Origin: Thermoflexales bacterium
Lineage (GTDB): Bacteria > Chloroflexota > Anaerolineae > Fen-1058
Direction of reading: 5' to 3'
Assembly (NCBI GenBank): GCA_034434835.1
Contig: DAOTXX010000152.1
Coordinates: 5,594-69,593, forward strand
DNA: 64,000 nt
Shown: piece after piece, positions 4,210 to 31,601 of the stretch
Layout of the letters: the number at the start of each line of letters is the position of its first letter
Position numbering within the stretch: the stretch's first letter is position 1
Made by a program: the position numbers and the translations under genes
The notes under the pieces: generated by a model
What the model was told of the DNA's origin: nothing
The model's database searches: none
The model's input: only the letters and a program-made list of their open reading frames with translations

Positions 4210-4949
4210 ACCTTTTCAACCACCAGAAAGTGCGAGAGGCCCAAGGCCCGCAGCGGCGTTCCTTCTGCGGCATACGTGATCGCGCGGACCATTCGCCCCA
4301 GGGTCGGCCGCCACCTGACAAGGTTATCGTAGCCGGGGTAGATTTGCGTGTGGACGATCACGCACACGGGCAATCCCTCGAACAGCGCGCGCAGTTGCTT
4401 CCCCGTGTACGCGCGGACGTGCGGAGCCAGCTTATTCCTCAACGCATCCGGCAGCCAGTTGACGAGCGCAAAGTTCCCAAAGTGATACACGCCTCGCCAA
4501 TAGATCCCATGCGTCTCAAAGAACCACCAACGATTGGGGACAAAGACGATCAACCGCCCGCCGGGTCGCAGGACGCGCACGGCCTCGCGCGCCGCTGCAC
4601 GGTCGTCATTCACGTGTTCTAAAACCTCGTGGCTGAGCACCACGTCGAAAAAGTTGTCCTCAAAGGGCAGCGCTTCGGCCGGAGCCACTTGAAGGTTGGG
4701 GAGTTCACGGCTGGCTTGAGCGATCCGCTCTGGATCAATGTCAACCCCATACACCTCGTCGGAGAACCGCCGCAACGCGCGCACATACAGCCCCAACCCA
4801 CAGCCGGCATCCAGGATGCGTTGGCCATCGAGTGGGACATACCGCTCAATCATCGCCAGGCGACGTTCCTGCCCAAAGCGCCAGACATAGCTGGGATGTC
4901 CCAGCGTGATGGACTTGTCAGCCAAGCTCGAAATCCTCTTTGTAGCCAA
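4206..4949 (-). CDS. Class I SAM-dependent methyltransferase
   Basis: ILDAGCGLG motif I, EALPFEDNFFDVV, EVLEHV, RVLRPGG. Confidence 0.92.
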   Translation of the reverse strand: MATKRISSLADKSITLGHPSYVWRFGQERRLAMIERYVPLDGQRILDAGCGLGLYVRALRRFSDEVYGVDIDPERIAQASRELPNLQVAPAEALPFEDNFFDVVLSHEVLEHVNDDRAAAREAVRVLRPGGRLIVFVPNRWWFFETHGIYWRGVYHFGNFALVNWLPDALRNKLAPHVRAYTGKQLRALFEGLPVCVIVHTQIYPGYDNLVRWRPTLGRMVRAITYAAEGTPLRALGLSHFLVVEKV

Positions 4950-7342: not shown

Positions 7343-7525
7343 GGGACACGGGTGACCTTCGAGGGTCATCGCCCGAATCGTCGCTTGCGCCCGGCGCTGA
7401 ACCGGGATACACTTGCGGCGAGGGAACTCTGAGTGTTCAGTGGTGACGGGGGCCGGCCCCGCTCGATGTCCCACGATCGTTCTGTATGTTGCGTGCCGCA
7501 GGTCAGCCTGGCCTGCGGCACGCGA
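7343..7525 (+). ncRNA. Multi-branched structured RNA or leader upstream of the HNH gene
   Basis: GGGACA/TGTCCC closes 3-4 hairpins (7343-7472); a ~17-bp hairpin (7488-7526) ends just before the RBS. Confidence 0.45.
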
Positions 7526-7547
7526 CGGAGTAAGAGGTACTGCCAAC

Positions 7548-8036
7548 ATGCATCGAGTGCTTGTCCTCAACGCGACCTATGAGCCGCTCAACACAGTGAG
7601 TATGCCGCGCGCAGTAGCCTTGCTCCTGGCCGACAAAGCCGAGATCGTCGAGGCGGCCGAGGCTCAACTGCGCAGTCAGTATCTCACCCTGCCGATGCCG
7701 CTGGTCATCCGGCTGGTCACCTACGTGCGCATCCCGCGTATGTTGCCGCTGGCCGTCACGCGACGCGGCGTGCTCAAGCGTGACAACTATACCTGCCAGT
7801 ACTGCGGACGGACGCAGGCCTCGGCCGAGCTCACACTCGACCATGTCGTACCGCGCAGTCGGGGCGGCAAGAACGTCTGGGAAAACGTCGTGGCTGCGTG
7901 CAAGCCCTGCAACCATCGCAAGGGCAACCGCACGCCCGGCGAGGCGCATATGCGCCTGCTCCGCCAGCCGTTCCGCCCGCGCTACCTTGCGTTGGTCGTC
8001 GTAGATATGCCGCCTGTGTGGCACAAGTATCTGTAA
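7548..8036 (+). CDS. Stand-alone HNH endonuclease (zinc-finger HNH, McrA-like fold)
   Basis: VLVLNATYEPL N-terminus, RDNYTCQYCG, TLDHVVPRSRGG, WENVVAACKPCNHRKG. Confidence 0.95.
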   Translation: MHRVLVLNATYEPLNTVSMPRAVALLLADKAEIVEAAEAQLRSQYLTLPMPLVIRLVTYVRIPRMLPLAVTRRGVLKRDNYTCQYCGRTQASAELTLDHVVPRSRGGKNVWENVVAACKPCNHRKGNRTPGEAHMRLLRQPFRPRYLALVVVDMPPVWHKYL

Positions 8037-8076: not shown

Positions 8077-9405
8077 ATGAGGGTCATGCGGACATTCTTG
8101 AAGCGTCTATGGATGTTTGCCAAGCTCGCCGTTATGCTGCTCAGCGTGAGCGCGCTGATCGTGCGGGAATACCCGTTGCCGGGCGAGTTTGTCCCGGCGG
8201 TCCATCGCCTGATCGGCAGCGAGATTTTTGACTTTGTCGGTTGGGAAGTTCAAACGCTCACGGCCAAGGGCGCGCAGATGCTCGTGCCGGCATCCAACTA
8301 TCTCGACGAGGCGCGCCGCAAGTCCCTCGTCCTTGATTACATGGACCTAGTGCAGCGCATTGAATTCCTCCAGAATGAGATTGACGGCATCTACGCTGAT
8401 CCCCAGATCACCGATCCGGCGGCCGCCTCCGCCCATCCACGCCAAGAGCTGGCGCGACTGCGCGCGCAGCAAGTCGCTCAACAGACCACCGTCGAAACAA
8501 TCATCGAAGAAAAAGTTTCAATCATCCTCAGCGAGCAAGGCTTTGCCGTCGGCGGGCAGGTGATCCCGCCGCTCAAGTTTCGGCTCACGCCGCTGCCGCA
8601 AATGCTCATCGTCTCGCCGCGCGACCAGATTTATCAGAAGGAAGCCTTTCCGCTCGAAGCAAGCCTCACGACCGACCGCGCCGAAGAGCTCGAGGCTGAG
8701 ATAGATCGGCGTTTTGATGTTTCGTCGCTCGTCGTGTTCATCGGTGGATTGGGATTCTATCCGACGATGCTATTGGAAAGCACGTCATTACCCTGGACGC
8801 TTGAGGTGGCCGCGCACGAGTGGACGCATAACTGGCTGGAATTTCGCCCGCTGGGCATGAACTATTCCAAATCGCCCCAGACGCGCACGATGAACGAGAC
8901 GACGGCCAACATTGTGGGCCAAGAGATCGGCGAAATGACCCTGCACAAGTTTTTCCCTGAGCTGGCGCCACCGCCGCCCCCCACCCCACCCCCCGGCCCC
9001 ACTCCAACCCCGGCCCCGACGCCCACGCGCGATCCGAACCGCTTTGACTTTCGGGCCGAGATGCGCACCACACGCGTGGAGGTAGATCGTCTGCTGGCCG
9101 AAGCGCGCCAGGCCAAAGAAGCGGGAGACCCAACCACGGCGGCTGCGCGGATCAACGAAGCCGAAGAGTACATGCGTCAGCGGCGCAGGTTCTTTGCCGA
9201 GCATGGCTATTCGATCCGCAAGCTGAATCAGGCGTACTTTGCCTTTCACGGCGCTTATGCGGATCAAGTCGGCGCGGCCGGCGAAGACCCGGTCGGCCCG
9301 GCGGTCAAGCGCCTACGCGATCGCAGCCCGTCGCTCAAGGCATTCCTAGATACGATTGCTTCCATGACCACGTTTGAGGAACTCGAGCGGGCGTTGGGAG
9401 AATAG
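8077..9405 (+). CDS. Membrane-anchored hypothetical protein with an HExxH motif (putative zinc peptidase)
   Basis: N-terminal TM helix; AAHEWTH followed by MNETTA; PT-rich linker. Confidence 0.8.
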   Translation: MRVMRTFLKRLWMFAKLAVMLLSVSALIVREYPLPGEFVPAVHRLIGSEIFDFVGWEVQTLTAKGAQMLVPASNYLDEARRKSLVLDYMDLVQRIEFLQNEIDGIYADPQITDPAAASAHPRQELARLRAQQVAQQTTVETIIEEKVSIILSEQGFAVGGQVIPPLKFRLTPLPQMLIVSPRDQIYQKEAFPLEASLTTDRAEELEAEIDRRFDVSSLVVFIGGLGFYPTMLLESTSLPWTLEVAAHEWTHNWLEFRPLGMNYSKSPQTRTMNETTANIVGQEIGEMTLHKFFPELAPPPPPTPPPGPTPTPAPTPTRDPNRFDFRAEMRTTRVEVDRLLAEARQAKEAGDPTTAAARINEAEEYMRQRRRFFAEHGYSIRKLNQAYFAFHGAYADQVGAAGEDPVGPAVKRLRDRSPSLKAFLDTIASMTTFEELERALGE

Positions 9406-9479
9406 GGATCAGTGAGCAGTGACCAGTGATCAGTAAACAGGGATCGGTGAATAGTGATCGAGGATCAGCGGAGAGCAGC

Positions 9480-9683
9480 ATGTCGTCAGAGAATCCACAA
9501 CAAAACTCACCTGAAAAGCACCGGCTGACGTTGGTCATCGGAGGCATGGTGCTGGGGATGCTCGTCGCTTATCTGTTCGGCGCGCTCGGACGCGGGCCGG
9601 TCAAGCCACTCGATCTGATCTTTTGGGCCGTCGGCGGCGCGCTGCTCGGCCTGCTAGCTAGCCTGCCCCAGCCGCGCAGATAA
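9480..9683 (+). CDS. Small two-TM membrane protein
   Basis: GGAGAG RBS; two hydrophobic helices. Confidence 0.65.
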   Translation: MSSENPQQNSPEKHRLTLVIGGMVLGMLVAYLFGALGRGPVKPLDLIFWAVGGALLGLLASLPQPRR

Positions 9684-12469: not shown

Positions 12470-12694
12470 GGGTATTTCCCACATAGTGTGGTAGACCCCA
12501 CAATCTGTCACACCTGCCCTGGCGGGCGGTGCCAGGGTTGCGAGCCGCCGAACCCCCTGGTGGGGGCAGGTGCGGCGAAGCCATCTCATTTTCCCTACCC
12601 GGAGATTGCTTCGGAAGCCCGCCACGCTTTGCTCGTGGCTTAAGCTGCGCGCCCTCGCAATGACAGCGCGACTCACGTCAAGTGGGAAATGCTC
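12470..12694. mobile_element. MITE (TIR GGGTATTTCCC / GGGAAATGCTC) carrying an interrupted GTCATTGCGAG-type palindrome
   Basis: Flanks GAAGACAC / GAAAACAC (7/8 match); interior ends GAGATTGCTTCG...CTCGCAATGAC. Confidence 0.65.
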
Positions 12695-19933: not shown

Positions 19934-20072
19934 GCGTTTGATGTGAAATGTTTTTCACCTTGTCATTGCGAGCCGCCGCAAGCGACGAAGCCATCCCCTT
20001 GCCGCAAAAGGAGATTGCTTCGCGCCCTCGCCTTCGGCGGGGTGCTCGCAATGACAATTCCACATCAAACGC
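19934..20072. mobile_element. MITE-like shell (GCGTTTGATGTGAAAT / ATTCCACATCAAACGC) around a GTCATTGCGAG palindrome
   Basis: 15/16 inverted ends; palindrome at 19962-20055; no clean target duplication. Confidence 0.65.
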
Positions 20073-21744: not shown

Positions 21745-23355
21745 TCAGCGCACGAGCATCAATGCAGCCTGCCCAATCAACATCAGCACGCCCAGCACGA
21801 TGAGCGCGTACACCAAGAACTGGGCCAGCGGATAGACCCACGAAACGGCCTTTCGACCGTCGTCGAGCACCAGCTCGCGCAGTTCAAAGACTGGCTGCGG
21901 GACGCGGCGGAACCAGCCGCGCGCTGTGCCGCTTTGCCCGATGAATTTTTCCGCGCGCAGCAAGCCGAACAGAAACTCGAACAGGCTCCATGGCTGACGA
22001 TAGTCCAGCACGACAAAGCCGGTCGAGTCTTGCAGCACCAGGTCTTCGCTGTAGAACAGGCCCGGCACGCCTCGCCCAATGATGCGCCCGCGCAGCGTGC
22101 CCGGCACCGCGCGCACCTTGCTCACCTTGACCTGGCCGACCAGCTCGCGGACATTTCGCCCGGCGGCGAGATCAGGCGGATAAGCAAAGCGCCGCTGCAG
22201 CCACCAGGCCACGCCCCAGGCCAGCAGCCCGACGCCGATACCCGCCAGTGGTAGCTCGAACAGAAGGCTCAGAGCCGCTACCCCCAGTCCAAACAAAAAG
22301 CCGAGCGTCGCAAGCTGGCTGATCACCAGATCCACCAGGAACTCGTCCCAATAGCTTTCCGGCTGCTCGGCGCGGAAGGAAAACGCAGGCGTGCGTCCCA
22401 TCGCTTCGCTCTGCTTTTCCAGCGCCTTGATGCGCTTGGCCGGCAGCGGATGACTCGACGACAGCTCGTACCACCCGGCCCACGGGTTCCACAAGTCCCA
22501 CTTCATTGCATCTTCCATCGCTGAGGTGGTGAGGCTGCCAGTCCCGGCTCCGACGAGCGCGAGCGCCCTGGCGACCTTGGGGTCGAACACGCCGAACGCA
22601 CGCGCGGCTTGCATCCGCACGTCATTCTTGGCCTGGCCGGATTGCGGCGCGCGAGCCAGTCCATAGGCGATCTTGACCAGGCCGGTCGCCAGGGCATCGG
22701 GATTGCCGGTGAGTTCGCCGGAGAAGCGGTCGGCATAATACTCGCGCACGCGGCTGAGGAGCAAGACGATGTACTGGCTCACCACGTAAGCGATGTAGGA
22801 GATGAGGCCAATCAGCGCGATGTACCCGCCGCCTTTGCTGCGCGAGCGGCCGCGACCGCGCGTAGCGATGTAGAGCGTGTAGAGCACGAGCGGCACGACG
22901 GCGGCGACCGTCATCACGACAAAATCCCAGTGCGCGATGTGGCCCAGCTCGTGACCGACGACGGCCTGCGCCTCTTGCGGATTGAGCATTTGCAGCAGCC
23001 CGCGCGTGACGACGAGTCTCGCGTTGCCCGGATAGTGCCCGAAGGTAAAGGCGTTCGGGTTGCCGTCGTCAATCACGCCAAAGCGCGGGATGGGGATGTC
23101 CCGCTGCTGGCACGCGCGCGCGATGAACGCGGCCAGTTCCGGGCTGAACTGCGCCGGGTCCACCCACTGAATCTTGTAGATCCACTGCAAGATGAACGGC
23201 CCCAACAGGTATTGCAGGGCCACGACGATCACGGCGAACGGCACAGCCAGCCACGCCGGCAGCCCCGTCGCCAGCAGAGCCATGATGCCGACCGCAAACA
23301 CCAGCCCGAACAACAGGGCCAGCACAATGATGGAACGCATAGCCAGGTTTACCAT
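21745..23355 (-). CDS. M48 (HtpX-like) membrane zinc metalloprotease with C-terminal extension
   Basis: PNAFTFG, VVGHELGH, SRVREYYAD, SSHP. Confidence 0.9.
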   Translation of the reverse strand: MVNLAMRSIIVLALLFGLVFAVGIMALLATGLPAWLAVPFAVIVVALQYLLGPFILQWIYKIQWVDPAQFSPELAAFIARACQQRDIPIPRFGVIDDGNPNAFTFGHYPGNARLVVTRGLLQMLNPQEAQAVVGHELGHIAHWDFVVMTVAAVVPLVLYTLYIATRGRGRSRSKGGGYIALIGLISYIAYVVSQYIVLLLSRVREYYADRFSGELTGNPDALATGLVKIAYGLARAPQSGQAKNDVRMQAARAFGVFDPKVARALALVGAGTGSLTTSAMEDAMKWDLWNPWAGWYELSSSHPLPAKRIKALEKQSEAMGRTPAFSFRAEQPESYWDEFLVDLVISQLATLGFLFGLGVAALSLLFELPLAGIGVGLLAWGVAWWLQRRFAYPPDLAAGRNVRELVGQVKVSKVRAVPGTLRGRIIGRGVPGLFYSEDLVLQDSTGFVVLDYRQPWSLFEFLFGLLRAEKFIGQSGTARGWFRRVPQPVFELRELVLDDGRKAVSWVYPLAQFLVYALIVLGVLMLIGQAALMLVR

Positions 23356-23394
23356 GTTGACCTCCTACAAGTCGCAGGGCGCAAGTCGCACGTC

Positions 23395-23486
23395 CATGCG
23401 TGTCAACTTAAGGTTGGAGTGCAGGCTTCAGCCTGCATAAAACGCGGCCTGAAGGCCGCACTCCGGGGCTAAAGTTTACACCAATG
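23395..23486. mobile_element. 92-bp MITE (CAT...ATG ends) containing a REP doublet; identical inverted copy at 43974-44065
   Basis: TIR CATGCGTGTCAACTT / AAGTTTACACCAATG; interior GGAGTGCAGGCTTCAGCCTGCA and GCGGCCTGAAGGCCGCACTCC. Confidence 0.85.
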
Positions 23487-23508
23487 GTCGCATGTCCGAT
23501 TCGGGAGT

Positions 23509-23552
23509 GGCAGGGCGGTGGGCGACTGCCGCCCTGACCATGACTTGGGCAC
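23509..23552 (-). repeat. Partial attC-like repeat (left half only)
   Basis: Minus strand GTGCCCAAGTCATGGTCAGGGCGG... resembles the left ends of the repeats at 23773, 24626 and 25511. Confidence 0.4.
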
Positions 23553-23569
23553 CGCCTGCCCCTCCAACT

Positions 23570-23746
23570 CTAAGCATCATCCAGGCCCCAGTCCTGGCGC
23601 ACCAGTATTGCACTACTCTCTGGGATAGGCAAATAGGTGGCAAGTACTGCAGTGACCCACCAACAGAAGACGAACAGCAACAGAGGACACAGAATTCCTA
23701 CAGCAAGGCTGACCGCGATTGATTCCGTCCTAGTCACGTTTTTCAG
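23570..23746 (-). pseudogene. Probable truncated membrane-protein gene (cassette remnant)
   Basis: AAGGAG RBS; (L)KNVTRTESIAVSLAVGILCPLLLFVFCWWVTAVLATYLPIPES then an abrupt end. Confidence 0.4.
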
Positions 23747-23772
23747 ACACTCCTTCGCGGGATACGGAAGGT

Positions 23773-23874
23773 GCCAAACTCGAGATTGGGACACATCGAG
23801 CCACATGGCGGACTCTGCAAATTCACTCGTGGCAGCAGGGCGGGCGCCCACCCCGCCGAGCGGAACTTGGGCAC
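23773..23874 (-). repeat. Degenerate attC-like repeat
   Basis: Aligns closely with 24626-24730; ends CCCAAT-CTCGA-GTTTGGC on the minus strand. Confidence 0.55.
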
Positions 23875-23882
23875 TTTCTGGC

Positions 23883-24578
23883 CTATTCTGCACAGTCTTT
23901 CAACTGCCTTCTGGTGTATACTTCAAGCACTACGTTGGTAATCACTGTCCCAATGGCCGCACTTACAATGAAGGCAATTGCCGCTTTCCGCAGAGCCATC
24001 CAAGCCATTACCATTCCTTCACCCCAGCTTCCAAGTCCCGCCTCGTATTCCATTCTTTCTGCACACCATATTTCGCCGTTAGTATAAGCGATGTAGCTCA
24101 CCAAATTGTTGTATGATGACTCATTAGATGGAATGGAGAAAGAAATGTTCAGGGTCACCTGAAGGACAGGTTGTGCAGGTGGTATTAGGTAGAATCGCGA
24201 ATTCTCAATTACTGTAACACCAGCAACCGGTTTCCCTTGAATAACAGTCATGCCATCTGGCACACAAATCGGCACGATGTCCGTGATTTTAGTTGTTCTC
24301 TTGTCTGTTTCTGCAAATAGGCCAGAGCCCATCTGATATTCTAGCCCAACGGGCGGCGCATTTAACGATGCTACGTAACGCCAGGTTCCATTCCAACCCC
24401 ATACAGCTATATACGACATCACAATTGAACTGAGAAGACTAAGAAATGATACTGTTGCTGCCGCAACTAGCACGGGACGACGGTGATATCTTAACGTCCA
24501 TAATGCCCCGAGTATCACTCCAAGAAGTAGGGGTGGAGTTAGACAAACCAATATGCATGTCGAATACTCTGAGAGCAT
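23883..24578 (-). CDS. Hypothetical membrane protein, lower GC (cassette-like)
   Basis: Hydrophobic segments at both ends, AT-richer codons, bounded by attC-like repeats. Confidence 0.75.
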   Translation of the reverse strand: MLSEYSTCILVCLTPPLLLGVILGALWTLRYHRRPVLVAAATVSFLSLLSSIVMSYIAVWGWNGTWRYVASLNAPPVGLEYQMGSGLFAETDKRTTKITDIVPICVPDGMTVIQGKPVAGVTVIENSRFYLIPPAQPVLQVTLNISFSIPSNESSYNNLVSYIAYTNGEIWCAERMEYEAGLGSWGEGMVMAWMALRKAAIAFIVSAAIGTVITNVVLEVYTRRQLKDCAE

Positions 24579-24625
24579 CTGCCATTTCTCGTGTGCTGGC
24601 TTGTAATTGTCGCGACTGCGGTTGC

Positions 24626-24730
24626 GCCTAACTCGGAATTGAGCCGCGCAAAGCCACATGGCGAACTCTGCAAATCCACTCGCAGCAGCGGAGCGGGCGA
24701 CCGCTTCGCGCCGCCGACCGGAACTGGCAC
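24626..24730 (-). repeat. attC-like repeat with a canonical right end
   Basis: Minus strand ...GCGCG-GCTCAAT-TCCGA-GTTAGGC (L'-spacer-GTTRRRY); left arm degenerate. Confidence 0.65.
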
Positions 24731-24731
24731 A

Positions 24732-24968
24732 TTACAATTCGTCGTATTCCTCTGGCTCTACATTGGCTACCTTTGCCATTGCTTTTCGGAATTTCTGCTT
24801 ATCTCCGCGCTTAGCTCGCTTTCCAATGTATTCTTCGGTCATCAATGCCGATACTTTTTCTGCCAGCGCAAGAGTAATCAACTGGTTGATCGAGATGCTT
24901 TCTTTCGCGGCTAACTGCCGTGCGCTATCGTGCAGGGAATGGGGCAAACGAAGGCTAATCGTACTCAT
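24732..24968 (-). CDS. Ribbon-helix-helix antitoxin-like protein
   Basis: MSTISLRLPHSLHDSARQLAAKESISINQLITLALAEK; ATGA overlap with the PIN gene. Confidence 0.9.
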   Translation of the reverse strand: MSTISLRLPHSLHDSARQLAAKESISINQLITLALAEKVSALMTEEYIGKRAKRGDKQKFRKAMAKVANVEPEEYDEL

Positions 24969-25393
24969 GGCAACTCTCCAATCTTTTGCAGAAACTCTCT
25001 CGGAGTTATTATGCTGATACCGAACTGTTCGACTCCTTCAAAATCACGTTGGTTGTGCGTGACGATAAAATCGCATCTTGCACTGACTGCCAATTCCAAG
25101 ACCATATCATCTTTGGGGTCTTTGAGGAACGGACGCCATAGATAAAAGACCGCATGGTGACTGGCAACCACACAGATATAATCGAGAATATGGTCAATAT
25201 CACGAGCAGTTAGGGCTATTTGGCCTATAAGCCTTTTGGCTGCCTCTTCATATTCGAGAACAAGCGGCACGGAGACGTTCGCCACAAACTTGCCGCTATC
25301 AATCAGTGCGAGCAGCTTGTAGGAAGCGCCGCGGCGTGAACGGAGGGCGGCTACCAAGACACTGGTATCAATGACAATCTGAGGCGTGTTCAT
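24965..25393 (-). CDS. PIN-domain toxin-like protein
   Basis: IVIDTSVLVAAL, LVLEYEE, DPKDDMVLELA, IVTHNQRDF. Confidence 0.93.
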   Translation of the reverse strand: MNTPQIVIDTSVLVAALRSRRGASYKLLALIDSGKFVANVSVPLVLEYEEAAKRLIGQIALTARDIDHILDYICVVASHHAVFYLWRPFLKDPKDDMVLELAVSARCDFIVTHNQRDFEGVEQFGISIITPREFLQKIGELP

Positions 25394-25396
25394 ATC

Positions 25397-25428
25397 GGTA
25401 TCATATACGATACCAAGGCATTTGTCAA
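25397..25428 (-). promoter_or_regulatory. TA promoter with overlapping palindromic operator (leaderless mRNA)
   Basis: TTGACA-17 bp-TATGAT; GGTATC-N6-GATACC spans the -10 box; ATG lies 6 nt after the -10. Confidence 0.8.
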
Positions 25429-25510
25429 TGAGGTGTGACCAAATCCGGTTGATGCGTAGTGGCGACCCTTGTGGTCGCCCGCGTCAAGGCTGGCTTTGGG
25501 GTCGTGCGTC

Positions 25511-25611
25511 TTCCAACCGGTAACGGCTGAGCCGCGCAAAGCCACATGGCAACTCTGCGACCCCGCTTGTGGGAGATGGGCAGGCGACCGCCCCACTGAC
25601 CATAACTAGGC
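25511..25611 (-). repeat. Degenerate attC-like repeat
   Basis: Shares GCAGAGTT(C)GCCATGTGGCTTTGCGCGGCTCA with 24626-24730. Confidence 0.55.
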
Positions 25612-25647
25612 CGATCCGAAACATGTGCAGATGCATCCGAATCCGGC

Positions 25648-26022
25648 TCAAAACGGAGCAATCACCCAGCGCCCATAGGCGACGAAGGCGGCCAAAGCGA
25701 AAAGAACAAGGCCGACCAAGCTGTTAGGGCTTTCGCGGCAGGCGATGTGGAACCCAACCGCCACCAGCATCATCAGGGCCAGCAGCGCCGCTGACCAGGG
25801 CGTCAGCCAGGTCAAAATCCCGGTCACGGCAGGCAGGATCAGAGTGACCCCACCGAGAAACGCACAGAAGGCGATCAAAGTTAACAGGGGCCGTGTTGCC
25901 GCGCCGAGCCGCTGTATTCCTTTTTGCATTTTCGTCTCATCCGGGCGCAAACCGTGCGTGTAAGCAACTGAGACGAATTTAATGGCGAGCACTATTTGCA
26001 AAGCCCACAAGACAACATTCAT
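25648..26022 (-). CDS. DoxX-family membrane protein
   Basis: MNVVLWALQIVLA..., LILPAVTGILTWLTPWSAALLALMM, AFVAYGRW. Confidence 0.85.
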   Translation of the reverse strand: MNVVLWALQIVLAIKFVSVAYTHGLRPDETKMQKGIQRLGAATRPLLTLIAFCAFLGGVTLILPAVTGILTWLTPWSAALLALMMLVAVGFHIACRESPNSLVGLVLFALAAFVAYGRWVIAPF

Positions 26023-26099
26023 TTTGGTTCCTTGTGTTTGCCCCAGCAAGATCGCGGCTCTTGAATCAGTGTCTAGATTTCACGCGATTGCGATAGGTG

Positions 26100-26145
26100 G
26101 CTCAACTCGAGATAGAGCTGCGCAGGGCTGCCTGGCGAACTTGGC
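26100..26145 (-). repeat. Short attC-like repeat
   Basis: Minus strand GCCAAGTTCG...GCAGCTCTAT-CTCGA-GTTGAGC. Confidence 0.45.
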
Positions 26146-26149
26146 TTCA

Positions 26150-27286
26150 CTACTGGCTCACCTGTGCAAACGCGCCCTCCTTGACTTGGAAGATAAAGAC
26201 GCGCTGCTCTTTCACGTCGCCGTTGGCGTCGTATGCGATCTTACCCATCGGCGTGGTGAGGTCCAGCGTTCGGATCGCCTCGGCCACGCGCGGGCCGTCG
26301 AGCGTCCCGGCCTTTTTCGTGCCTTCGAGCAGCACCTTCATCGCGCTGTAGCCGTTGATGCTGTAGGTATCGGGGTTGCGGAACTCGACGTCCTGGTACG
26401 CCTTGATCCACTGCGCCTGCACAACGGCCTTCGGCTCTGGAGCAAAGTTGCTCAGGTAGATGCCCTCGGCGCTCCCGTCAGATTCGTCAATTGTCGCCGA
26501 CAGGAACGCGCCGTCGGAGGCCATGAACGGGACCTTGACGCCGGCATCCACCAACTGCTTGCGCAGATAGGGCGTCTCGACTTCATAGCCCGCGTAAAAC
26601 ACGGCATCCGGCGCGGCGGACTTGACCCGTTGCACTTCGGTGACGTACTTGCTCTGCTCCACTTGCACCTGGAGGCTGAGCACCGCCTGCGCGCCGAGCC
26701 GGCCAAGCTGCTCGCCCATCGCTTTGCCCAGGCCGATGCCATACGGGTCGTCGTTGTGGATGATGGCGATCTTTTTCGCGCCGAGCTTGCTGACCAGGAA
26801 CTCGGCGTCCACGCGCGCCTGCGTCGCGTCGTTCGCGTTGACGCGGAAAAAGTTTTTGTAGCCCTTTTGCGTCAGCGTCGCTTCGCTGGCCGTGGGCGTG
26901 ATGATGACGATGGGCAGGTCTTTGTAGACCTCCATCGCCGCGAGCGTCTGCCCGCTGTTATAGTGGCCGATGACGCCGAGCACGCGCTTACCTGCCTTGA
27001 GATCAGCCACAATGTCCTGAGCGACAGCGACCGCCACATCGTCATCGCTTTCGTCATCTTTGGCAACGACGACGACCTGGTAGCCCAACAGCCCACCGGA
27101 CTTGTTCACCTCGTCGGCGGCCAGGCGCGCGCCGCCCAGCACCGTCTGCCCGCCGTTGGCCTGAAAGCCCGAAAGTGGCGCGGCCACGTAGACGATCACT
27201 TCGCCTTTGGTCGGGCCAGGTCCGCCGCAGGCGGAGAGCATTAGCACCGCAATCATCAAAAGCATCAACAGCTTGTTCATTTGCAT
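26150..27286 (-). CDS. Branched-chain amino acid ABC transporter substrate-binding lipoprotein (LivJ/K-like)
   Basis: Lipobox LSAC, APLSG, DDESD, VIGHYNSG, FFRVNAND, YGIGL. Confidence 0.92.
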   Translation of the reverse strand: MQMNKLLMLLMIAVLMLSACGGPGPTKGEVIVYVAAPLSGFQANGGQTVLGGARLAADEVNKSGGLLGYQVVVVAKDDESDDDVAVAVAQDIVADLKAGKRVLGVIGHYNSGQTLAAMEVYKDLPIVIITPTASEATLTQKGYKNFFRVNANDATQARVDAEFLVSKLGAKKIAIIHNDDPYGIGLGKAMGEQLGRLGAQAVLSLQVQVEQSKYVTEVQRVKSAAPDAVFYAGYEVETPYLRKQLVDAGVKVPFMASDGAFLSATIDESDGSAEGIYLSNFAPEPKAVVQAQWIKAYQDVEFRNPDTYSINGYSAMKVLLEGTKKAGTLDGPRVAEAIRTLDLTTPMGKIAYDANGDVKEQRVFIFQVKEGAFAQVSQ

Positions 27287-27382: not shown

Positions 27383-27607
27383 CTAAAAGAACCCGCGTAT
27401 CACGAGCAAAAAGCCAAAGATGATCAGCGGGATGCCGACCACGGCGCCGATAATCGTCGCGGTGAGAATCACCCCCACGATCATCAGCACCAGGCCCAGG
27501 AGGGCGGCAACCAACCGGCCAGTCACCTCGATGATCCCGGCGACCAACTTCCAGAGCGCCACAAACGGCCAGAGTATCCACGACGTACCGTGTTCTTCTT
27601 TCGACAT
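27383..27607 (-). CDS. Small membrane protein
   Basis: MSKEEHGTSWILWPFVALW...GAVVGIPLIIFG; GGAAGG RBS. Confidence 0.75.
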   Translation of the reverse strand: MSKEEHGTSWILWPFVALWKLVAGIIEVTGRLVAALLGLVLMIVGVILTATIIGAVVGIPLIIFGFLLVIRGFF

Positions 27608-27624
27608 ATCTGCCTTCCTGCTCG

Positions 27625-27746
27625 ATAGAGATTTGAGATAGAGATTTGAGATAGAGATTTGAGATAGAGATAGGGAAGGTTGCTTATCAATCTCTATCTC
27701 TATCTCCATCTCTATCTCTATCTCCATCTCCATCTCTATCTCTATC
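27625..27746. repeat. Hexamer microsatellite in inverted arrangement: (GAGATA/GAGATTT)n then (TATCTC/CATCTC)n
   Basis: Directly visible tandem repeats. Confidence 0.9.
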
Positions 27747-28194
27747 TGCGCTTTTCCATCAACAGCCCGGCTTCGCCGTCGCCGTAGTAATGGGTCTGGC
27801 GTCGGACTTGCTCATAGCCCAGCTTGCGATACAGCGCAATGGCCGGAGTGTTGCTTTCGCGTACCATCAGCCGCACGATGGGCCGCCGCAAGCGCGCCTC
27901 ACATTCTGCCAACAACCTGGCGCCGATGCCGCGTCGCCGATGCTGCGGCGCGACTCCCAAGGTGACGATCCACGCAGCCTGCTCGCCCCACGGCTCATCG
28001 CCCGCGACAAAGCCGATCAGCTCATGCCCCGTCGTCGCCTTGAGCGTCACGTTGCCTGGCCAGACGACGAGCAGGAGCAGCGTCAACGGGTCATACGCCT
28101 CCCTGGGGAAGCAGGCTCGCTCCAACCGCCACAGCGCCATGACATCACGCCACGAGGCGCGCGCGACGGTGACCTTTTGTATGGACAAAGACAT
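27742..28194 (-). CDS. GNAT N-acetyltransferase (RimI-like)
   Basis: LGVAPQHRRRGIGARLL, VRESNTPAIALYRKLGY, YYGDGEAGLLM. Confidence 0.9.
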   Translation of the reverse strand: MSLSIQKVTVARASWRDVMALWRLERACFPREAYDPLTLLLLVVWPGNVTLKATTGHELIGFVAGDEPWGEQAAWIVTLGVAPQHRRRGIGARLLAECEARLRRPIVRLMVRESNTPAIALYRKLGYEQVRRQTHYYGDGEAGLLMEKRR

Positions 28195-31447: not shown

Positions 31448-31601
31448 TGTATCCTAACATCTTGAACACTGGTGTCATTGCGAGGAGCCGCGCAGCGGCG
31501 ACGAAGCAATCCCCTGGTATTGAGATTGCTTCGCGCCCTTCGGGCGCTCGCAATGACATAAAGAGCGGGATTCTGCAAACTGTTCAAGATGTTAGGGTAC
31601 A
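31448..31601. mobile_element. MITE-like shell (TGTATCCTAACATCTTGAACA / TGTTCAAGATGTTAGGGTACA) around a GTCATTGCGAG palindrome
   Basis: 20/21 inverted ends with TG...CA termini; palindrome at 31474-31557. Confidence 0.75.

Follow-up and report, generated by a model that had tools for sequence, protein, structure and literature searches.

A probable integron-type gene cassette array with non-canonical sites in a Thermoflexales bacterium

The island and its contents

We examined a 2.7-kb island (~23480-26149) within a 64,000-nt stretch of contig DAOTXX010000152.1 from a Thermoflexales bacterium (Chloroflexota; Anaerolineae); this whole stretch is called the window, and all coordinates are positions within it. 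The island holds four gene units separated by five related repeats (R1 to R5), and we consider it fairly probable that it is an integron-type array resembling an attC site cluster that has no integron integrase (CALIN). The original prediction had placed five related repeats and four co-oriented units here, and all of them are present. Every gene from 21745 to 27286 lies on the minus strand, in the order periplasmic binding protein (BP) gene, R5, DoxX_2, R4, PIN_3 toxin with its antitoxin, R3, a 231-aa ORFan, R2, a 56-aa open reading frame (ORF), R1 and an M48 metalloprotease gene (Table 1). The GC content is 45-55% inside the island versus 60-65% in its flanks.

Homologs of the M48 protein assign the window to the class Anaerolineae of the Chloroflexota. 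The window DNA itself is present only in contigs from two sister runs, and its history was read from relatives, which carry L-numbers as labels of the contigs compared. In one of them (L054, 82% M48 identity), the BP and M48 genes are separated by a gap of 59 nt that contains no repeat; the island is therefore an insertion. In a second relative (L055, 80%), the same spot, at 692-1248, holds one other low-GC gene, and the repeat family is absent. This interval between the BP and M48 genes appears to be a hot spot for the acquisition of small genes. The L055 gene encodes a 118-aa membrane protein with no Pfam match.

Aligning six full copies reveals the layout of the repeat. In order, it consists of the left box GCC(Y)AAGTTCYGGTC (conserved as GCCYAAGTTCYGGTC), an 18-bp GC-rich hairpin with three compensatory pairs, GAGTGAATTT, the middle box GCAGAGTTCGCC, ATGTGGCTTTGCGCGGCTCAAT, a 5-nt spacer and GTTRRRY; the left box, the hairpin and the middle box, a second direct GTT box, make up the 5′ two-thirds. 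The three GTT-containing (AGTT) boxes are all direct, and L′ is the one inverted box. Three copies, R2, R3 and R4, are complete at ~105 nt and share 56-85% identity, depending on the segment. R5 consists of just the right ~46-50 nt, and R1 of the left ~46 nt followed by a degenerate tail, its right module missing or degenerate down to ~23480. The short forms R5 and L059a (one of four family members, L059a to L059d, on contig L059) lack the hairpin module, and R1 is that module alone; R5 reads as a hybrid of the left and middle boxes (GCCAAG|TTCGCC).

A 7-nt L′ box followed by a 5-nt spacer is found in R2, R3, R5, L059a, L059b and L059d; in attC sites this spacer measures about 5-7 nt. The R′ box conforms to GTTRRRY in R3 and R5, departs from it at one position in R2 and is deviant in R4; the L′-spacer-GTT boxes originally quoted are exact in R3, R2 and R5. 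By eye, co-variation of the left-end and right-end boxes as direct repeats was inconsistent across copies. A search with an nhmmer family profile and with core patterns, for which 0-0.24 matches are expected by chance, found no further family copy in the 64 kb, and there the left-end motif is confined to the island. Dispersal regardless of gene boundaries, the outcome against which the original prediction had been set, was not seen within the 64 kb: all copies fall in the 2.7-kb island.

The cassette content is typical of integrons, comprising ORFans, small membrane proteins and a self-promoted toxin-antitoxin (TA) pair. TA cassettes with their own promoters are typical of integrons and CALINs. 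Pfam bears out the DoxX and PIN assignments made earlier, with matches to DoxX_2, PIN_3 and a HicB/CopG-like antitoxin, and the low-GC membrane protein is an ORFan, having no Pfam match and no homolog but itself in 5.8 billion clusters. The toxin (PF13470) and antitoxin (PF05534/PF12441) genes are small and adjacent, overlap by 4 nt and carry their own promoter and an operator-like palindrome; the PIN_3 and ribbon-helix-helix (RHH) pair qualifies as a type II toxin-antitoxin module. It is kept as a unit in at least six contexts, its promoter and palindrome are conserved in all TA contexts compared, and the palindrome GGTATCGTATATGATACC is likely the operator for autoregulation. Apart from the TA pair, whose promoter is strong, no cassette has a promoter of its own, and the others therefore rely on read-through. 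The fourth unit had been described as a truncated gene, a label we replace: it is better read as a small ORF with one transmembrane (TM) helix and a ribosome binding site (RBS), without a Pfam match and with no sign of being a fragment.

In R3 and R2, a conserved ATG of the repeat (CCATGTGGCT) shares its reading frame with the ORF that follows (24578-24659, 23740-23893), so that mechanically called ORFs run into the repeat (258 versus 231 aa, and 107 versus 56 aa); the 107-aa version was called by a gene caller on L065. Leaders of several unrelated cassettes share a short motif, A(C/G)AAGCC(A/G), at 20-45 nt downstream of the R′ box (window 24600-24560 and 25490-25500; L059 3465-3480; L060 3520-3535). 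The 63-nt insert in the TA leader was considered as a solo left module and rejected, its similarity being too weak and without an nhmmer match.

Table 1. Repeats, cassette genes and flanking genes, in minus-strand order
Feature	Coordinates	Strand	Description
BP gene	26150..27286	-	left chromosomal flank; periplasmic binding protein (Peripla_BP_6), 378 aa; stop 26150-26152
R5	26100..26149	-	short-form site directly after the BP stop, heading the array; direct GTT box GCCAAGTTCGCC; L′ GCTCTAT (26112-26118), spacer CTCGA, R′ GTTGAGC (26100-26106)
Cassette 1	25648..26022	-	DoxX_2 family membrane protein, 124 aa; PF13564, E 2.3e-13; gene call in L001
R4	25511..25612	-	full site; left-end motif GGCCTAGTTATGGTC (25598-25612), hairpin, middle GTT box; deviant right end GCTCAGC-C-GTTACCG-GTTGGAA (25511-25532)
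TA-leader insertion	25433..25495	-	63 nt, relative to L059; own hairpin GGGCGACC-ACAA-GGGTCGCC
TA promoter and palindrome	25397..25428	-	TTGACA-17-TATGAT (25428-25400), 11/12 promoter matches; overlapping palindrome GGTATCGTATATGATACC, 18 bp (25397-25414)
Cassette 2a	24965..25393	-	PIN_3 toxin, 142 aa; PF13470, E 1.6e-21
Cassette 2b	24732..24968	-	RHH / HicB-like (HicB/CopG-like) antitoxin, 78 aa; PF05534, E 4.4e-07
R3	24626..24731	-	full site beginning 1 nt past the antitoxin stop; left end GTGCCAGTTCCGG (24720-24730), hairpin, middle box GCAGAGTTCGCC; L′ GCTCAAT (24638-24644), spacer TCCGA, R′ GTTAGGC (24626-24632)
Cassette 3	23883..24578	-	predicted membrane protein, 231 aa, ~46% GC; gene call in L001 and L065
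R2	23773..23874	-	full site; left end GTGCCCAAGTTCCGC (23860-23874); L′ TCCCAAT, spacer CTCGA, R′ GTTTGGC (23773-23779)
Cassette 4	23570..23740	-	56-aa ORF, one TM helix; GTG start, GAAGGAG upstream (RBS)
R1	23507..23552	-	left module only; GTGCCCAAGTCATGGTCAGG and 8-bp hairpin (z = -1.8)
M48 gene	21745..23355	-	right chromosomal flank; M48/HtpX-type metalloprotease, 536 aa

Segment exchange between related arrays

Homologs of the PIN toxin, at 90-94% identity, led us to the contigs that share the TA cassette. One of these, L059, a metagenome contig from an unrelated sequencing run, carries four members of the R family and reads DoxX (3′ end), short site, 165-aa gene, full site, 492-aa gene, full site, TA pair, full site and another gene. 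Relative to the window, its DoxX and TA pair are set apart by two extra units, and the unit that comes after the TA pair is a different one, while the shared units are 92.9% (TA) and 91% (DoxX 3′ end versus L059 1-136) identical in nucleotide sequence. A comparison of cassette order, as originally proposed, gives a differently composed array in L059, an empty site in L054 and another gene in L055. It marks the array as a mobile one whose units move as modules.

The sites on the two sides of the shared TA cassette were then compared segment by segment. Upstream of the TA pair, R4 and L059c are 70% identical in the left module, 51% in the right core and 94% in the tail after L′. Downstream of it, R3 and L059d are 78% identical in the left module, 85% in the right core and 50% in the tail after L′. 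These switches assign the tail (spacer and R′) to the downstream cassette and the sequence through L′ to the upstream cassette, and the deviant R4 tail moves together with the TA cassette. The breakpoints that flank the TA pair on either side lie between the L′ and R′ boxes, within a few nucleotides of R′. Integron integrases cut at the L′/R′ region. Comparison shows each cassette unit to run from the R′ box (G|TT...) through its gene or genes to the L′ box of the next site, as in integron cassettes.

The TA cassette, with the same promoter and operator, is also found in L058 and L074 beside canonical hairpin-forming attC sites. In L074, the shared TA leader begins within ~2 nt of the R′ GTT of a canonical attC, a position homologous to that in R4 and L059c. 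A third, unrelated family of repeats comes after the TA pair in L060-L064, L066 and L073.

This third family (ATTCTGGCCCGACGCC..GCCGCCAGTG..GACACGA..CAGGCGG.TACAGGTCG) separates small co-oriented genes around the TA cassette (L060 1359-1433, 2961-3036 and 3430-3460; L066 1380-1460 and 2000-2080; L073 1105-1190). Neither the rule-based finder nor the covariance model described below matches it, and it is not canonical attC. Homology of these repeats to the left module of the R family was considered and not borne out: a hidden Markov model of the left module picks up a separate R1-like copy instead, at L060 1279-1322.

The left box is the most widely shared piece of the R family. It recurs in L060 (1277-1325), and in L058 it stands three times directly before ORF-less pieces of a group II intron, as if the intron homes to it. 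The L058 intron copies, at 4359-4843, 7504-7656 and 9370-9660, are in sense orientation, each directly after a GCCTAGTCATGGTC-type motif that follows a cassette gene, and match Rfam RF02012 at 4433-4607 (88 bits) and 9397-9540 (44 bits). In larger collections, searching with one exact core pattern gave only chance matches in GTDB representative genomes, JGI metagenomes and IMG/VR, none of which extended past the pattern, and a search of a plasmid collection for the repeat gave one irrelevant coding match.

The sites compared with attC and attI

We now turn to the relationship between the repeats and known integron sites. As judged by its motifs, the right end of the repeats is a canonical integron simple site, comprising L′, a 5-nt spacer and GTTRRRY. 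That of R3, GCGCGGCTCAAT-TCCGA-GTTAGGC, is close to those of class 1 attC sites, for example GCGCGGCTTAAT-TCAGGT-GTTAGGC of aac(6')-IIa. The left end is RYYYAAG followed directly by TTC, not RYYYAAC. The sense strands of R2 and R3 contain no AAC, and they therefore have no R″ (RYYYAAC) box; the sole AAC of R4 falls within its deviant right end. As originally observed, GCC(Y)A(A)GTT is common to the left ends, which show no pairing with the right arm; the two ends are not complementary and form no inverted-repeat fold.

Folding leads to the same result. Whole sites folded as single-stranded DNA, on both strands, have z-scores from -0.1 to +0.9, no better than shuffles and without a canonical hairpin, and RNAalifold finds a local left-module hairpin only. 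In contrast, the L058 control sites fold as hairpins of R box, unpaired spacer and L box (z = -3.9, -2.4, -1.8). A rule-based attC finder, which requires RYYYAAC ... GTTRRRY boxes complementary in at least 6/7 positions and an R box formed in the minimum free energy structure, found nothing in the island, while it recovered the L058 and L074 sites and the class 1 attC sites fetched as controls. A home-made covariance model trained on eight canonical sites scored held-out sites at 34.6 bits (L058 3525-3650), 26.4 bits (dfrA12) and 15.2 bits (blaIMP-1), and matched none of R1-R5, L059 and the L060 family, even when run unfiltered at E<=10. A duplex-energy test of the right end against upstream sequence failed to discriminate even the control sites and was set aside. 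The repeats thus fail every canonical attC test made, in keeping with the earlier suspicion that they are fossil or non-canonical.

The window also lacks an integrase, as had been claimed: tblastn and phmmer searches with IntI1 and a second tyrosine recombinase returned noise only. A complete integron was rejected, since the BP gene stands upstream of the first cassette and the window has no tyrosine recombinase. A strict CALIN contains, within 4 kb and with no intI nearby, at least two attC sites recognised by an attC model, which the island does not, and 'CALIN-like' is therefore the right strength of name. Because the repeats carry only the right half of a classical attC, standard integron detection would miss the array. 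At the repeats, a terminator and promoter scan found no terminator-like or promoter function, and Rfam matched nothing in the window and, on related loci, only the group II intron pieces in L058.

Two other site architectures were tried and rejected. A tandem-attP model, with crossover in mid-repeat and with R5 and R1 as the right and left halves, is contradicted by the internal identity switches, which fall at L′/R′ and not in mid-repeat; the separate occurrence of left and right modules elsewhere (L059a) also counts against it. Xer/pdif modules, which have 28-bp, 11-6-11 dif-like sites in alternating orientation, are excluded because the present sites have a 7-5-7 form and a single, direct orientation.

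Integrons and CALINs are known kinds of array. Integrons have been reported in Chloroflexi (PMC4889954), and the island shares with integron and CALIN arrays (PMC4889954) its co-oriented, short and mostly promoterless ORFan cassettes with a self-promoted TA pair, its single ~105-nt repeat per cassette (attC range 57-141) with an L′-5 nt-GTTRRRY right end, exchange at the simple site, no nearby integrase, a composition that varies among relatives and a cassette shared with canonical attC arrays. Unlike attC sites, the window sites have no RYYYAAC R″ box and no complementary halves, cannot form an R/L-box hairpin with an unpaired spacer and extrahelical bases, and escape the covariance model and rule-based finder that recover the controls.

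A second comparison is with attI sites. The attI1 site contains an L/R simple site plus two direct repeats (DR1 and DR2), has four places at which IntI1 binds and serves as a double-stranded substrate (PMC12901181), and in clinical and mobile integrons, IntI1 excises and inserts cassettes that have attI-type sites as their boundaries (PMC12901181). Like attI and delta-attI-type cassettes (PMC12901181), the window sites have an L/R simple site with GTTRRRY after two direct GTT repeats, which needs no folding. Using an attI1 sequence verified against >5000 plasmids, we can set the R4 left box CTAGTTATGG beside DR1 GATGTTATGG and the R3 R′ box CGAGTTAGGC beside its attI1 counterpart AAAGTTAGGC, and the distance from the middle box to R′ is 34 nt compared with 32 nt from DR2 to R. 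The differences are that the window sites are not beside intI, are repeated after each cassette and contain an extra 18-bp hairpin, and that two L059 copies have a middle box without GTT. We treat the apparent resemblance to attI1 as a lead and not as a test.

In sedentary chromosomal integrons, such as those with Vibrio cholerae repeats, species-specific families of canonical hairpin-forming attC sites lie downstream of intI and attI. The island is similar to these in having a homogeneous ~100-nt site family in one lineage, self-promoted TA cassettes and many ORFans, and differs in being small, with four cassettes, in occupying an ordinary intergenic position and in having non-canonical sites. 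The intron pieces of L058 have a parallel in group IIC-attC introns, which target attC sites and classically insert on the bottom strand, opposite to the cassette genes (PMC3001079). Like these, the L058 pieces lie between a cassette gene and the rest of the site, directly after the left-end motif; they differ in being sense-oriented and ORF-less, and none occurs in the window. In the literature searched, we found no account of such a site family in Anaerolineae chromosomal arrays, and the paper that mentions both attC and Anaerolineae concerns sul4.

Interpretation and rival explanations

Taken as a whole, the explanation that we favour, and hold to be somewhat better than an even bet, is that the island is a horizontally acquired, integron-type and CALIN-like array of four gene cassettes between the BP and M48 genes, whose ~105-nt sites are a remodelled, lineage-specific derivative of attC. 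This agrees with the original prediction of a non-canonical integron-like array without an integrase, which is supported by the empty site, the L059 array, breakpoints at the simple site and the presence of the TA cassette in canonical attC arrays. The sites would descend from attC, and a tyrosine recombinase of integron type, with its gene elsewhere, would recombine them, or would once have done so, at the R′ box. Since no R/L-box hairpin is possible, the most plausible mode of action would be use in double-stranded form, as for attI, with the L/R simple site assisted by two accessory direct repeats. The array may still be active.

Several observations weigh against this explanation. The sites fail the structural definition of attC, and no integrase was found in the 64 kb or on any related contig. 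Two of the four L059 copies have an R′ triplet of GTG or GTC, and two L059 copies have GATT in the middle box, which weakens its reading as an accessory IntI box. At the head of the array, R5 keeps a whole right module where simple insertion would leave six bases only, and at its tail, R1 has no right module. The window arrangement is not a precise excision product of the one in L059, and a 35-nt remnant of a short site precedes R4. The 63-nt insert in the TA leader fits poorly, as does the TA cassette being followed by three site types in different arrays. The R family was not found in GTDB representatives and JGI metagenomes, as searched with one exact core pattern, and only ten copies are known, from two populations.

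A first alternative is a fossil array, with decayed attC sites that no longer recombine and with differences among arrays that predate the decay. The missing R″ box, cross-site hairpin and integrase, the partial R1 and R5 copies, and the GTG or GTC triplets of some L059 R′ boxes are all in its favour. Decay should be idiosyncratic, however, and ten copies in two populations share the non-canonical left end, the compensated hairpin and the middle box. The left-end motif is also seen in L060 and, immediately upstream of the pieces of a group II intron, in L058, and the breakpoints still map cleanly to the simple site. We consider a fossil array unlikely.

The wide distribution of the left-end box points to another alternative, in which some non-integron recombinase recognises this box together with the hairpin (GCCYAAGTYMYGGTC and stem), and the right end is inherited baggage. 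The box is the most widely shared piece, found in the R family, at L060 1277-1325 and as the 5′ exon of three L058 intron copies; the R5 hybrid GCCAAG|TTCGCC looks as if it had recombined between two direct boxes; and left and right modules are found separately (R1; R5 and L059a). However, both TA breakpoints lie at the L′/R′ simple site and not at the left box, no candidate recombinase gene stands beside any array, and canonical attC sites coexist in L058. Such a recombinase seems to us slightly less likely still.

In a third alternative, the repeats spread on their own, like repetitive extragenic palindromic (REP) elements or miniature inverted-repeat transposable elements (MITEs), and homologous recombination reshuffles the genes between them. 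Their size (~100 nt), GC-richness, hairpin and position just past stop codons are suited to such elements, and R3 and R4 share an identical stretch of 23 nt usable for homologous exchange. It is nevertheless very unlikely, given five copies within 2.7 kb and none elsewhere in 64 kb, when a palindromic repeat that is truly dispersed occurs at least four times in the window; the R copies are co-oriented and always bound a variable gene, and identity switches sharply at the simple site rather than grading. Highly improbable, finally, is an RNA-level element that plays no part in DNA recombination and was copied along an operon as a 3′-untranslated-region stabiliser, a terminator or a site of processing: a conserved hairpin does lie 1-38 nt past each stop codon, but it has no T-tract, the terminator scan is blank at the repeats, there is no Rfam family, whole-repeat folds are no better than shuffles, and the empty site and module shuffling are left unexplained.

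The preferred reading, an integron-type array with remodelled sites, leads to a broader proposal that we regard as doubtful: Anaerolineae may carry integron-type cassette sites that work as double-stranded attI-like sites, made up of direct repeats in an accessory role, a hairpin module of its own and an L/R simple site, rather than as folded attC, with arrays built, reshuffled and targeted by introns unseen by attC-model tools. The occurrence of the TA cassette beside canonical attC, the R family and the L060-type family would then mean that cassettes swap site types. Integron surveys model the attC hairpin, and the comparatively validated array described here escapes such models. Should its sites be active, surveys are missing some of the cassettes present in Chloroflexota, and perhaps in further phyla that have been little studied, and integron-type recombination is possible without the canonical fold in natural chromosomal arrays, as it is for clinical attI-type cassettes. 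If they are inactive, the locus records an attC family that was remodelled as a family, rather than by copy-by-copy decay.

The dispersed palindromic repeat of the window is unrelated to the R family. It is ~80-100 nt long and found at 19963-20054, 31475-31556, 51668-51764 and 59697-59775, with a solo end at 12653-12663. It has inverted termini TCATTGCGAG(G/C) and an inner stem GAAGCAATC...GATTGCTTC, with at least four copies in the 64 kb, some in low-GC intergenic spots. It folds very strongly (about -45 to -50 kcal/mol for ~146-nt stretches containing it) and is MITE/REP-like.

Two further features lie outside the island. Between R1 and the M48 gene, at 23414-23465, two similar stem-loops stand inside an outer stem (GGAGTGC-[GCAGGCTTCAGCCTGC]-ATAAAAC-[GCGGCCTGAAGGCCGC]-ACTCC); this double hairpin may be a bidirectional terminator or another small repeat. 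At 27624-27760, tandem short repeats, with GATAGAGATTTGA three times plus 12/18-nt TCTATCTC units, overlap a minus-strand ORF (27383-27733) that begins MEMEIEIEMEIEIEID.

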